From Myxococcota bacterium (GTDB taxonomy: Bacteria > Myxococcota_A > UBA9160 > PR03): DNA of 43,037 nucleotides. Location of the stretch: NCBI GenBank assembly GCA_041611735.1, contig JBFIML010000040.1:1-43037 (forward strand). Direction: 5' to 3'. The translations under genes were made by a program, and so were the position numbers. How positions within the stretch are numbered: position 1 is the first letter of the stretch; each line of letters opens with the position of its first letter. Below the pieces are notes generated by a model that was not told the DNA's origin, searched no databases, and saw only the letters and a program-made list of their open reading frames with translations. Shown one piece after another: positions 20-40,293 of the stretch.

Positions 20-48
20 CTCATACCCGCCCGGCCGCGGTCCGATAC
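20..48 (+). promoter_or_regulatory. Putative sigma28 (FliA/WhiG)-type promoter, probably giving a leaderless transcript
   Basis: C-TCATA(21-25)-N15-TCCGATAC(41-48), then 7 nt to GTG at 56; same geometry as the copies at 5201, 15228, 25723 and 40265. Confidence 0.6.
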
Positions 49-55
49 GCCCGGT

Positions 56-1213
56 GTGGCGATCCAGGACGCCGAATTCGCCCGCTGGCTCACCGAGTCC
101 TTCCGCTCGGGCCTCGTGGCCGTCGACGCCGAGGGTCGGCTGGCCGCCTGCAACGGGGAGGCCCAGCGCATCCTCGGCTGCCCGGCCGGCCGTCCCGAGG
201 CCGCTCTGGGCCGGGCTTGCCGGGAGGCCCTGGCCGGCCAGCCGACCCTCGTGACCGTGCTGCTCGACGCCCTCGACGGGCGCGAGCGCCCCACGCGCAC
301 GGAGCTCGTGCTGCGCCCCCAGGGCGGGGATCCGCCGCGCACGATCGGATTCACGCTGCTGCCGGTCCGTGATCCGGACGACCGGCTGCACGGCGCGGCG
401 CTGCTGTTCCGCGACCTGACCCCGTACGAGCGCATGGACGAGCAGGACCGCCTGCGCGAGCGGCTGGCGGCCCTCGGGCAGATGGCGGCCGGCCTGGCCC
501 ACGAGATCCGCAATCCCCTGGCCGGCATGGAGGTGCTGGCGGGGTTGCTGCGGCGGCGGCTGCACCAACGACCCGAGGAGCGGGAGCTGGTGGAGGAGCT
601 CCACGGCGAGCTGCGCCGGCTCGCCGCCACGGTCACCGCGAGCCTCGACTTCGTGCGTCCGGTGGCGCTGCGGCGCGAGCCCGTGGACGCCGTCAAGCTG
701 CTGGAGGAGGCCTTGGAGCAGGCCCGGGCGCGGGTCCCGTTCCTGGGCTCCGTGGAGCGCGACTACGCCCAGGCGCTCCCCCCCGTGGAAGCGGACCCGG
801 AGGCCCTGCGGGCCGTCTTCACCAATCTGATCGCCAACGCGCTCGAGGCCATGGGTGCGGAGCCCGAGGCCGGGCCGGGCTGTCTGCGCCTCGGCCTGCG
901 GGCGGTGGTCAGCGACCGCCCCGCCCGGCCCCTCCGCGTGGAGGGCGGTCGGGTGCCGACCGCGGCCCCCCCGACCGCCACGCGCGAGCTCGTGGCCAGC
1001 GTGGCCGACAGCGGACCCGGTGTGCCCGCAGGCCTGCGCGAGCGCATCTTCTATCCCTTCTTCACCACGAAGCCGCGCGGCTGCGGCATCGGGCTCGCCA
1101 ACGTCCAGAAGATCGTGGCGGGCCACGGCGGCCGCCTCGAGCTCGACGCCTCCGAGGCGCGTGGCGCCGTGTTCCGGGTGCGTCTGCCCCTGGACGCCGA
1201 GGCCGGGCGGTGA
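56..1213 (+). CDS. Cytoplasmic PAS-domain sensor histidine kinase (NtrB/FleS-like)
   Basis: N-terminal PAS-like GLVAVDAEGRLAACNGEA; H-box LAHEIRNPL; N-box FTNLIANA; G1 DSGPG; F-box IFYPFFTTK; G2 GCGIGL; no transmembrane segment seen. Confidence 0.93.
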   Translation: MAIQDAEFARWLTESFRSGLVAVDAEGRLAACNGEAQRILGCPAGRPEAALGRACREALAGQPTLVTVLLDALDGRERPTRTELVLRPQGGDPPRTIGFTLLPVRDPDDRLHGAALLFRDLTPYERMDEQDRLRERLAALGQMAAGLAHEIRNPLAGMEVLAGLLRRRLHQRPEERELVEELHGELRRLAATVTASLDFVRPVALRREPVDAVKLLEEALEQARARVPFLGSVERDYAQALPPVEADPEALRAVFTNLIANALEAMGAEPEAGPGCLRLGLRAVVSDRPARPLRVEGGRVPTAAPPTATRELVASVADSGPGVPAGLRERIFYPFFTTKPRGCGIGLANVQKIVAGHGGRLELDASEARGAVFRVRLPLDAEAGR

Positions 1214-2661
1214 GCGCCGATCGCGGCGCACGCCTGCTCGTGGTCGAGGACAGCGAGACGCTGCGGCGCGGCATCGTGCGCGCCCTGCGCGAGACGTGGG
1301 GCGAGGTGCAGGCGGAGGCGGACGCGGAGGGCGCGCTGCGCCGCCTCGCCAACCGCTCGGAGCCCTCCTGCCACGTGGTGGTGACCGACCTGCGCCTGCC
1401 GGGCGCCGACGGCATCAGCGTGTTGCGCGCGGCTCGCGAGCGCGATCCACGCACCGCCGTGATCGTGATGACGGCCTACGGCACCGTGGAGAGCGCCGTC
1501 GAGGCCATGAAGCTCGGCGCCTTCGACTTCCTGCAGAAGCCCTTCGATCTGGACCAGCTGGAGGTGCGGGTGGCCCGGGCCGTGGACCACGGGCGCCTGC
1601 TGCGGGAGGTCTCCACGCTGCGGGCGGAGCGCGCGGCGCGCTGGGCTCCGGAGAACATCGTCGGGACGAGTCCCGCCCTGCGCGCGGCGGTGGAGCTGGC
1701 GCGACGCGTCGCTCCGACCCGCTCCACCGTCCTCGTGACCGGCGAGACCGGCACCGGCAAGGAGCTGGTGGCGGGCCTGATCCACCATCTCTCGCCCCGG
1801 GCCGACGGCCCCTTCGTGAAGGTGAATTGCGCCGCCCTGCCCGAGACCCTGCTCGAGTCGGAGCTGTTCGGTCACGAGCGCGGCGCCTTCACCGGTGCCG
1901 AACGCACCCGCATCGGCCGCTTCGAGCAGGCCAGCGGCGGCACGCTGTTCCTGGACGAGGTGGGAGACCTCGCCCCCGCCACCCAGGCGAAGCTGCTGCG
2001 CGTGCTCCAGGACCAGCAGTTCCACCGCGTGGGGGGTACGCGCGTGATCCGCACCGACGTACGCATCGTGGCCGCCACCAATCAGGACCTGGCCAGCGCG
2101 ATCCGCACCGGCCGCTTCCGGCAAGACCTCTACTTCCGGCTCAACGTGATCGGCATCCACCTGCCGCCCCTGCGCGAGCGGGCCGCGGACACGGAAGCGC
2201 TGGCGCGTCACTTCCTCGAGCAGTTCGCGAGCGAGCTGACGCGCCCCTGCCGCAGCTTCTCTGCCGCGGCGTGGCAGCGCATCCGTCTCCACCCGTGGCC
2301 GGGCAACGTGCGGGAGCTGCGAAACGTGATCGAGCGTGCGGTCCTCCTCGCAGAGGGCGAGCAGGTCGAGGTGGACGACGTGGGCCTGGCAGAGACGCCT
2401 GCCCTGGCCGGCCGGCTGCGCCTCGACCTCCCGCCCGAGGGCATTCCGCTGAGCGAGGTGGAGCGCTCGGTGGTGCTCGAGGCCTTGCGCCGCACGGGGT
2501 GGGTCCAGAAGGACGCCGCGCGGCTGCTGACGGTGAGCCGCCGCAAGCTCAACTACATGATCCGACGCATGGGCATCACGCACCCATCCTGGCGCCGCAA
2601 CCGGGCCGTGCCGGACGCCGCAGCGGACGCGGCCCTCGACGAGCGCCCCGACGTCGCTTGA
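1210..2661 (+). CDS. Sigma54-dependent response regulator (REC-AAA+-HTH, NtrC family)
   Basis: REC (LLVVED, VVTDLRLP, FLQKP); Walker A GETGTGKE; intact GAFTGA; Walker B FLDEV; WPGNVREL; Fis-type HTH; GTGA overlap with the kinase. Confidence 0.95.
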   Translation: MSADRGARLLVVEDSETLRRGIVRALRETWGEVQAEADAEGALRRLANRSEPSCHVVVTDLRLPGADGISVLRAARERDPRTAVIVMTAYGTVESAVEAMKLGAFDFLQKPFDLDQLEVRVARAVDHGRLLREVSTLRAERAARWAPENIVGTSPALRAAVELARRVAPTRSTVLVTGETGTGKELVAGLIHHLSPRADGPFVKVNCAALPETLLESELFGHERGAFTGAERTRIGRFEQASGGTLFLDEVGDLAPATQAKLLRVLQDQQFHRVGGTRVIRTDVRIVAATNQDLASAIRTGRFRQDLYFRLNVIGIHLPPLRERAADTEALARHFLEQFASELTRPCRSFSAAAWQRIRLHPWPGNVRELRNVIERAVLLAEGEQVEVDDVGLAETPALAGRLRLDLPPEGIPLSEVERSVVLEALRRTGWVQKDAARLLTVSRRKLNYMIRRMGITHPSWRRNRAVPDAAADAALDERPDVA

Positions 2662-2725
2662 ATCGCCCCGCGGCTTCGGATAACTACGAGGGTCGCCCGG
2701 GTGCCTCCGGGCCTCGGGGGTCTCC

Positions 2726-40104: not shown

Positions 40105-40154
40105 CCTGGCTCCCACGGAAGCATGCCCGCGGCCGCAGCTTCCGCTCCACTGGC

Positions 40155-40182
40155 ATTGTATCCGGTCGCCGGGCCGGGGAAA
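40155..40182 (-). promoter_or_regulatory. Possible sigma70 promoter of the oxidoreductase operon
   Basis: Minus-strand TTTCCC-N16-TACAAT (TACAAT at 40160-40155). Confidence 0.4.
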
Positions 40183-40264
40183 GGGCGGGGCCGCCGGGGC
40201 GCCCCCGGATCGCGAAATCCCGGACCCAGCGCCCGCTTCGCCTTCTTCCTGCGTGCTCGCGAGC

Positions 40265-40293
40265 CTCAAGCAGGGACCCGGAAGGGCCGATAC
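40265..40293 (+). promoter_or_regulatory. Putative sigma28-type promoter of the tgl operon, probably giving a leaderless transcript
   Basis: C-TCAAG(40266-40270)-N15-GCCGATAC(40286-40293), 7 nt before ATG 40301; no SD sequence. Confidence 0.72.

Follow-up and report, generated by a model that had tools for sequence, protein, structure and literature searches.

The 43,037-bp contig C40 of a Myxococcota draft genome (4.09 Mb, 72% G+C, 118 contigs, estimated to be 95% complete) raises the question of what a flagellar-type sigma factor might do in a bacterium in which no flagellar genes are found. This contig, analyzed over its entire length and referred to here as the window, contains five short elements that resemble promoters of the sigma28 (FliA/WhiG) class, each in front of a different gene unit. 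An earlier note on this DNA had proposed that the five elements are intergenic and identically spaced, and that a FliA/WhiG-like sigma uses them to control a non-flagellar programme that includes pili, competence and cyclic di-GMP (c-di-GMP). The results presented here make it probable that the five sites are working sigma28-class promoters within a much wider regulon, estimated at about 150 promoters, and that they are read by a retained sigma factor in a genome without identifiable flagellar genes. Direct computation established the motif together with how it is enriched, oriented, spaced and conserved; it also identified the sigma gene, revealed no flagellar genes and defined the composition of the target set. 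Control of a surface programme by a FliA/WhiG-like sigma is supported by these results, with the step from the sigma to the sites being one that we infer.

Across the genome, for which a purpose-built codon-bias caller predicts 3647 genes (92.6% coding; intergenic share, 7.6%), the motif takes the form cCTCAAG-N15(14)-GCCGA(T/A)a, with a sharp spacer peak and with the final AA of GCCGATAA barely conserved. The intergenic density of the word CCGAT on its own is 1.5 per kb and strand, no higher than that of similar words, so that only the two-box arrangement is informative. When the intergenic CCGAT words are aligned, T, A and A stand out at -21, -19 and -18, which is the -35 box of the earlier note. 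The fixed word TCAAG-Nx-NCCGAT is found in intergenic DNA 33 times at x=15 and 11 times at x=14, with 0-3 occurrences at each other x from 9 to 22, and coding DNA, which is twelve times larger, contains only 7 instances with the 15-nucleotide (nt) spacer. The spacer peak disappears when CCGAT is replaced by CGGAT, and a smaller peak (15) is seen with CCGAA.

A two-block position weight matrix (PWM) was iterated at a threshold of 13 bits (a 9-bit threshold drifted into noise and was dropped) and yields 159 intergenic matches of at least 14, compared with 9.5 expected from the coding density. The excess persists with a left-out PWM, from the training of which contig C40 was excluded and which provides all scores for the sites in the window: compared with 20 second-order Markov simulations of all intergenic regions, there are 155 observed matches vs. 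13.0 expected at a score of at least 13, 142 vs. 7.6 at 14, 108 vs. 2.3 at 16 and 32 vs. 0.1 at 20. The matches are oriented toward the next gene in 143 of 156 cases. The motif is therefore strongly intergenic, spacer-specific and strand-oriented, and the outcome that would have spoken against the earlier note, namely equal frequency in coding or simulated sequences, was not observed.

Among the 143 co-directional matches, the T of CCGAT is never found 4-9 nt from the start codon, is exactly 10 nt away in 20 cases (12 ATG, 8 GTG) and 11 nt away in 7, after which the distances are broadly spread. In the open complex of Pseudomonas aeruginosa fliC, the box is numbered (-15)GCCGATAA(-8) (PMC12784957), and +1 is therefore ten bases after the T of CCGAT. 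The spike of start codons at 10 nt combined with this position of +1 points to leaderless mRNAs that begin at the start codon, which implies that about a fifth of the predicted regulon transcripts would be leaderless, including two in the window (the kinase gene at 56 and the gene for a 245-amino acid (aa) protein at 40301). In the proposed mechanism, the core promoter would comprise cCTCAAG at about -35 and GCCGA(T/A) at -15 to -10, separated by 15 (sometimes 14) nt, with +1 expected 10 nt downstream of the T of CCGAT.

A two-box element of this kind might, in principle, be a transcription factor binding site or a dispersed repeat rather than a promoter, and the identity of two of the 33 exact-consensus seed sites over 55 nt, likely a duplicated stretch, is a feature that fits a repeat. 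We nevertheless find this explanation hardly credible. Apart from this one duplicated pair, the 33 seeds have nothing in common beyond the boxes, and the unrelated spacers and flanks show that they do not form a repeat family; the boxes are neither palindromic nor direct repeats; and the strand bias, together with the lower limit of 10 nt and the spike at that distance, is what is predicted for a promoter with a fixed start. On these grounds (unrelated flanks, non-palindromic boxes, strand bias and start-codon spike), a repeat element and a palindromic operator were both rejected. The identity of the two seeds over 55 nt suggests either a duplicated stretch or overlapping contig ends.

All five sites of the window are present on the + strand exactly as the earlier note gave them, and lie in gaps between gene calls ahead of + strand genes (Table 1). 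The intergenic location of site 1 is, however, not demonstrable in this genome because the site is 20 nt from the contig end, and its upstream context comes from relatives for which 300 nt of upstream sequence is available. The identical spacing of the five sites also holds only in part: N15 applies to sites 1, 3, 4 and 5, whereas site 2 is better read as TCAG-N14. Of the eight matches in the window that score at least 13, five are these sites, which all fall within the roughly 3.4% of the window that is intergenic.

Conservation of the sites was assessed in 30 relatives (16 from the same family and 14 from other families of the order), which were searched with the five downstream proteins; the 300 nt upstream of each orthologue were scanned, and the counts include the locus in the window itself. 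All five sites recur upstream of orthologues across the family and the order. Site 5 (score 24.8) has counterparts scoring 19.3-25.0 in all 23 aligned orthologous loci (tblastn gave no alignment in 3 of 26), although the encoded proteins are only 37-75% identical; the distance from the T of CCGAT to the ATG is 10 nt in 19 loci, 9 nt in three and 11 nt in one. In the window, the T is at 40291 and the predicted start, 40301, is the A of the ATG, so that the transcript of the 245-aa protein gene would be leaderless. Site 4 (score 21.7) has a counterpart of at least 16 in 27 of 30 orthologous loci; its predicted start at about 25759 would leave a 49-nt leader with a GGAGGG ribosome-binding site.

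For site 1 (score 16.0), the count is based on 27 orthologous loci, from which three weaker loci that resemble paralogues (L255-L257) had been excluded beforehand, and 26 of the 27 have a match of 14 or above. These matches mostly read GCTCAGG-N15-TCCGATG, and in 23 of the 27 loci the boxes are located 9-11 nt before residue 1 of the kinase. In the window, the T of CCGAT is at 46 and the predicted start at 56 coincides with the GTG of the histidine kinase gene, the transcript of which would accordingly also be leaderless. The counterparts of site 3 (score 16.2, predicted start at about 15264) are found about 81-121 nt upstream of the orthologues and have near-invariant boxes, CTCAG[CT]T ... 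GCCGATGAG; they score at least 12.4 in 26 and at least 14 in 17 of the 27 analysable loci (the other three of the 30 comprise two that gave no alignment and one at a contig edge).

Site 2, with a score of 13.7, is the weakest of the five, and its local false-discovery rate judged by the score alone is roughly 40%. The predicted start is at about 5237, which would give a leader of about 100 nt. The site is rescued by its conservation at orthologous loci: a match of at least 13.4 is present in 23 of the 26 analysable loci (the N-terminus was unaligned in 4 of 30). Within the family, it reads CTTCAG[GC]-N14-GCCGATAGA, and in the other families TCAAG-N15-GCCGATA (18-23 bits).

This conservation speaks against the possibility that only the two consensus sites, at 25723 and 40265, are functional, whereas sites 1-3, the -35 boxes of which are degenerate, resemble promoters by chance and were selected by eye. 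The abundance of CCGAT words to choose from speaks for such a selection effect, as do the scores of sites 1-3 (13.7-16.2), which correspond to score-based local false-discovery rates of about 5-40%. However, each degenerate variant is itself retained at the orthologous position, with CTCAGCT-N15-GCCGATGAG in 26 of 27 loci for site 3 and CTTCAGG-N14-GCCGATAGA or a stronger match in 23 of 26 for site 2. Under the Markov null, a match of at least 14 is expected by chance in only about 0.4% of 330-nt segments, and therefore the weak -35 boxes of sites 1-3 represent conserved variants and not noise; we judge the look-alike explanation very unlikely.

Table 1. Predicted sigma28-type promoter sites of the window and the gene units that follow them.
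Feature	Position	Strand	Boxes or genes	Basis
Site 1	20..48	+	-35 CTCATA (20-25), N15, -10 TCCGATAC (41-48)	
Unit 1	56..5194	+	PAS histidine kinase (56-1213); NtrC-type sigma54 activator (1210-2661); 822-aa TPR protein (2726-5194)	Pfam
Site 2	5201..5229	+	CTTCAG / ACCGATAG; best read TCAGC-N14-ACCGAT	
Unit 2	5338..7656	+	LysM + FlgT_C protein, TsaP-like (5338-6504); DprA (6553-7656)	Pfam
Site 3	15228..15256	+	CTCAGC / GCCGATGA, N15	
Unit 3	15347..19662	+	DnaJ-TPR (15347-16531; alternative ATG 15308); Hsp70 (16528-18102); TPR (18113-18709); PAS (18706-19662)	
Site 4	25723..25751	+	CTCAAG / GCCGATCC, N15	
Unit 4	25808..27202	+	response-regulator diguanylate cyclase (REC-GGDEF)	Pfam
Site 5	40265..40293	+	CTCAAG / GCCGATAC, N15	
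Unit 5	40301..43035	+	245-aa protein (40301-41038); PilW/Tgl-like TPR (41079-41867); HTH_25 protein (41825-42355); RecO (42385-contig end)	

The existence of a sigma28-family gene, on which the earlier note depended, is borne out. The genome encodes a single sigma factor of the FliA/WhiG family (C13:60701-61465, 254 aa), which is the only one of eight sigma-like matches to exceed the TIGR02479 cut-off (274.7 bits vs. 189.6). It also passes the NF005413 FliA subfamily (258.2 vs. 201) and falls below the WhiG equivalog NF004935 (290.6 vs. 343), and is therefore best described as WhiG-like, not to be filed as WhiG. The protein contains Sigma70_r2, r3 and r4 and lacks a long N-terminal region 1, which is the group 3 architecture. 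The closest solved structure is the sigma chain of 6PFV/6PFJ (235.6 bits), labelled in the database only as 'RNA polymerase sigma factor', which we take to be Streptomyces WhiG; it is followed by FliA of Escherichia coli (198.7) and of P. aeruginosa (179.1). For P. aeruginosa sigma28, 11 promoter-contacting residues have been named (PMC12784957), and seven of these are identical here, namely K64, D66, Y76, R80 and D87, which contact the -10 box, and S224 and Q228, which contact the -35 box (mapped via alignment to the P. aeruginosa chain, the numbering of which is 5 ahead of that in the paper).

The sigma gene is strongly conserved, with a homologue above the cut-off in 29 of the 31 genomes of the family and order, including all 17 high-quality ones. 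A species-representative collection contains 484 confirmed relatives of this sigma; the best 80 of the 484 are 82-90% identical to it, and all of these are labelled as metagenome-assembled genomes of uncultured Myxococcota or 'Deltaproteobacteria', some of them wrongly. In agreement with the non-flagellar character proposed in the earlier note, a profile search of the 95%-complete genome produced no match to Flagellin_N, Flg_bb_rod (rod), FHIPEP (FlhA) or FlgM; at this completeness, flagellar genes are probably, though not certainly, absent. Among the 31 relatives, 10 have flagellin and 9 have FlhA, with a patchy distribution even within genera. It thus seems that closely related members of this order repeatedly lost, or else acquired, flagella, which apparently came and went while the sigma was retained.

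The association between the sigma and the motif was examined further in a sample of 81 genomes of the phylum grouped by their best FliA score, in which TCAAG-N16-CCGAT was counted against a codon-phase-matched N19 control; raw whole-genome counts of the pattern are uninformative because lower-GC genomes are rich in coding matches, so that this control is needed. In the 17 genomes with an orthologue-grade FliA (E <=1e-76), the medians are 34 vs. 9, and the excess is at least 20 in 12. The median excess is 1 in the 29 genomes with other FliA-family sigmas (at least 20 in none) and 2 in the 35 genomes without a FliA above the cut-off (at least 20 in one, the FliA match of which is cut by a contig end).

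Several observations weigh against the proposal that the retained sigma reads these promoters. Four of the 11 contact residues differ from those named for P. aeruginosa (S72K, I79F, R32Y, H36R). The genome encodes other sigmas, and those examined comprise one RpoD, four that are RpoD/RpoS-like, one that is RpoH-like and one of the ECF-type sigmas. At the flagellin loci of relatives, where the motif might be expected, an upstream match of at least 12 is found at one of six (15.8, 129 nt upstream; 1.5-kb flanks), and another of the six (L322) has a sigma54-like TGGCAT-N5-TTGCA instead. Five of the 17 orthologue-bearing genomes have an excess below 20 (none in G024, G095 and G083, +5 in G085 and +14 in G025), and because those with the excess are related to one another, the co-occurrence agrees with the link without proving it independently. 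Finally, the intergenic label depends on the codon-bias caller, and the PWM was trained on intergenic matches; the fixed-word, left-out-training, orientation and distance tests are independent of this training.

The obvious competing explanation is that the motif represents a real promoter class that is read by another sigma (for example, one of the RpoD/RpoS-like proteins or the RpoH-like one), the FliA homologue serving some other, small set of genes. The additional sigma genes and the lack of the motif at most flagellin genes of relatives fit this possibility, and so does the presence among the targets of chaperone genes (Hsp70 twice, DnaJ-like twice, HrcA and Lon). However, the boxes are unlike those of RpoD or RpoH promoters, whereas the boxes, spacing and implied start fit the sigma28 consensus and the open-complex geometry of P. 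aeruginosa. The FliA homologue retains the residues that read -13C, -12G, -11A and the -35 box in P. aeruginosa, and across the 81 genomes the excess of the motif follows the FliA orthologue. We therefore consider control by another sigma improbable, and infer that the FliA homologue reads these sites; given that the flagellin genes of relatives mostly lack the motif, this link is not drawn from flagellar genes. In the flagellar cluster of one relative (G022), a further flagellin gene has a 15.1 match 104 nt upstream and a kinase-activator pair has one of 16.5. We also observe, in the 5' regions of four flagellin genes of relatives (L320, L321, L322 and L323), short hairpins with the loop AAGGATCG or AGGGATCG about 35-55 nt before the start codons, which resemble CsrA-binding sites.

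The fliA gene itself appears to be under sigma54 control. A sigma54-type promoter, TTGGCACgcgccGTGCTT, is predicted about 105 nt before its ATG (L018:10594-10611, contig C13), and TGGCAY-N5-NTGCT is found 75-150 nt before fliA in 80 of 80 loci from related species, with variation in the five-base spacer. The neighbourhood is conserved as well and includes an NtrC-type activator upstream (68 of 69 loci), a Stp1-type PP2C phosphatase (67 of 68) and, downstream, a 499-aa response regulator (57 of 60). In the genome analyzed here, three genes have a sigma28-type match of their own, namely those for the phosphatase, for the response regulator and for a second activator. Placement of fliA under a sigma54 activator resembles the hierarchies that govern polar flagella. 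The circuit likely runs from a signal through the sigma54 activator to fliA and on to the regulon, and this sigma54-to-sigma28 link suggests a two-tier cascade. A 22.0-bit sigma28-type site located 191 nt upstream of a gene for an RpoD/RpoS-like sigma (516 aa, C63:276-1826) hints at a further tier.

What this regulon might contain was assessed from the first genes behind the sites, to which all counts refer; outside the window there are 136 such genes (co-directional intergenic matches of at least 14 within 300 nt). The c-di-GMP network is prominent, with a promoter directly upstream of 10 of 18 GGDEF, 7 of 9 EAL and 6 of 18 PilZ genes; for any of these domains, the figure is 18 of 38 compared with 140 of 3647 genes overall, an enrichment of about 26-fold (odds ratio 25.7, Fisher p 1.9e-16). 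The 136 targets include 11 GGDEF and/or EAL proteins, 6 PilZ and 2 MshEN proteins, 3 PilB/PilT-type ATPases, 4 prepilin-type proteins and a Tad-type secretin, as well as 2 methyl-accepting chemotaxis proteins, 4 DUF4388 proteins, MotA/ExbB, Roadblock/LC7 and a protein with a RomY N-terminal domain. Also present are bactofilin, MreB and DivIVA, 2 sigma54 activators with many kinases and response regulators, and Hsp70, a DnaJ-DUF4388-TPR protein, HrcA, Lon and Rho; at 1e-8, Pfam gives no match for 34 of the 136. The pili, competence and c-di-GMP programme of the earlier note is thus upheld for c-di-GMP and for the recurring pilus and motility genes, whereas competence is represented only by dprA behind the LysM/FlgT_C gene.

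Under the proposed mechanism, the regulon run by fliA would consist mostly of genes for c-di-GMP synthesis, breakdown and sensing, for components of type IV pili, and for chemosensory and polarity/motility proteins, along with those for two-component systems and some chaperones. The presence of c-di-GMP enzymes among the targets implies feedback between the sigma and c-di-GMP. A broader evolutionary scenario, to which we give about an even chance, is that in this large, uncultured clade of Myxococcota an ancestral flagellar sigma became the master regulator of non-flagellar surface behaviour, comprising type IV pili, Mgl/RomY-type polarity and gliding-associated proteins and nearly half of the c-di-GMP network; that it is switched on via a sigma54 activator and feeds back on c-di-GMP, on kinases and on another sigma gene; and that the regulon outlived repeated loss of the flagellum. 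If this scenario is correct, the way in which myxobacteria regulate surface motility would have its origin in a flagellar hierarchy, and the sigma28 regulon would be unusually large, with a fifth of its transcripts leaderless. More generally, an organelle-specific sigma appears to have been kept after the loss of the organelle, with extreme conservation, to carry a pilus, motility and c-di-GMP programme.

Non-flagellar use of this promoter class has precedents. WhiG of Rubrobacter radiotolerans directs type IV pilus and dgc/pde genes from 12 start-site-verified sigma28-type promoters (PMC8325347), and such WhiG predictions have been extended across Actinomycetota in a 2026 preprint (PMC12871210). 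The system described here resembles WhiG of non-sporulating Actinomycetota in the use of a flagellar-clade sigma without a flagellum, in the promoter type and in the targets, which include type IV pili and c-di-GMP enzymes. It differs in the phylum and in the size of the regulon (about 150 predicted promoters vs. the 12 start-site-verified ones of Rubrobacter), in having a -35 TCAAG rather than TAAA, in a sigma that is below the WhiG equivalog cut-off, in the predicted sigma54 dependence of fliA and in the many targets predicted to be leaderless.

The similarity to FliA of E. coli and P. aeruginosa extends to the passing of the curated cut-offs, the GCCGAT core at -15 to -10 with a -35 box about 15 nt upstream, and the conservation of key DNA-reading residues (PMC12784957). 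Compared with proteobacterial FliA, the system here differs in that searches for flagellin, rod, FlhA and FlgM genes gave no match, in the low conservation of the last two bases of GCCGATAA, and in a predicted regulon that is several-fold larger and non-flagellar. In Bdellovibrio bacteriovorus, a flagellated former 'deltaproteobacterium', FliA reportedly drives an extensive attack-phase programme, with sigma28-type promoters ahead of well over a hundred genes, some of them pilus genes. A full-text literature search, which did not extend to supplementary files, retrieved nothing on a FliA regulon of Myxococcota; the sole paper that pairs 'Myxococcota', 'flagellar' and 'FliA' concerns Peredibacter, and a preprint (10.1101/2021.11.28.470282) mentions FliA for E. 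coli only.

Accordingly, the sigma family, the promoter class and the non-flagellar use of that class are already known. What is new is the phylum, the predicted regulon, with its approximately 150 promoters and its focus on c-di-GMP, pili and motility, and its putative sigma54 input, as well as the apparent survival of the regulon through the loss of the flagellum and its conserved, predicted leaderless architecture. A single computable promoter rule with a fixed start joins about 150 operons, including many genes of unknown function, which are thereby placed in a shared context, in a phylum-level branch that has no cultured model, and the conserved leaderless arrangement provides exact predicted start sites.

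Within the window, 36 genes were called, and most of the gene labels in the earlier note are borne out by Pfam. An exception is 'tgl': the gene at 41079-41867 is under both curated cut-offs (Tgl NF033762, 88 vs. 225; PilW TIGR02521, 91.8 vs. 154) and is, by these profile scores, only a PilW/Tgl look-alike. The LysM/FlgT_C gene has no NCBIfam match. Likewise, the sigma70-like elements suggested for aspS, argG, trmFO and the oxidoreductase gene could not be confirmed: scanning 7600-27400 with the consensus returned 0 sites with 0.4 expected, and therefore nothing can be said about housekeeping promoters. The gaps in front of these four genes contain no sigma28-type match of at least 9.

The 245-aa protein behind site 5 has no Pfam or NCBIfam match and no usable match in the ESM Atlas. 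Its gene carries the strongest and most conserved of the predicted leaderless promoters. The protein is conserved across the order, the alignable part mostly lying within the first 110-245 residues, has a tail rich in proline and acidic residues, and is always encoded next to the PilW/Tgl-like TPR gene, as in the window. The order of the five units is also kept on single contigs of relatives; for example, contig C58 of relative G006 contains the kinase, LysM, DnaJ, GGDEF and 245-aa protein genes in the same order within about 38 kb.

Sites 3 and 4 share the word GGG[CT]ATTCTCCC, located on the + strand 25-27 nt upstream of their -35 boxes (15197-15209 and 25694-25705); the genome-wide counts of ATTCTCCC, 8 in intergenic and 15 in coding DNA, are too small for a judgement. 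The remaining three matches in the window that score at least 13 are intragenic, and two of them are antisense (21189-21216 and 28880-28907). The third, at 34637-34663 (+), is a sense match of 18.6 bits (CTTCAAGC-N14-TCCGAAGCA) within the malate dehydrogenase gene mdh, about 520 nt before sucC, and may be either an internal promoter of sucCD or a chance occurrence.

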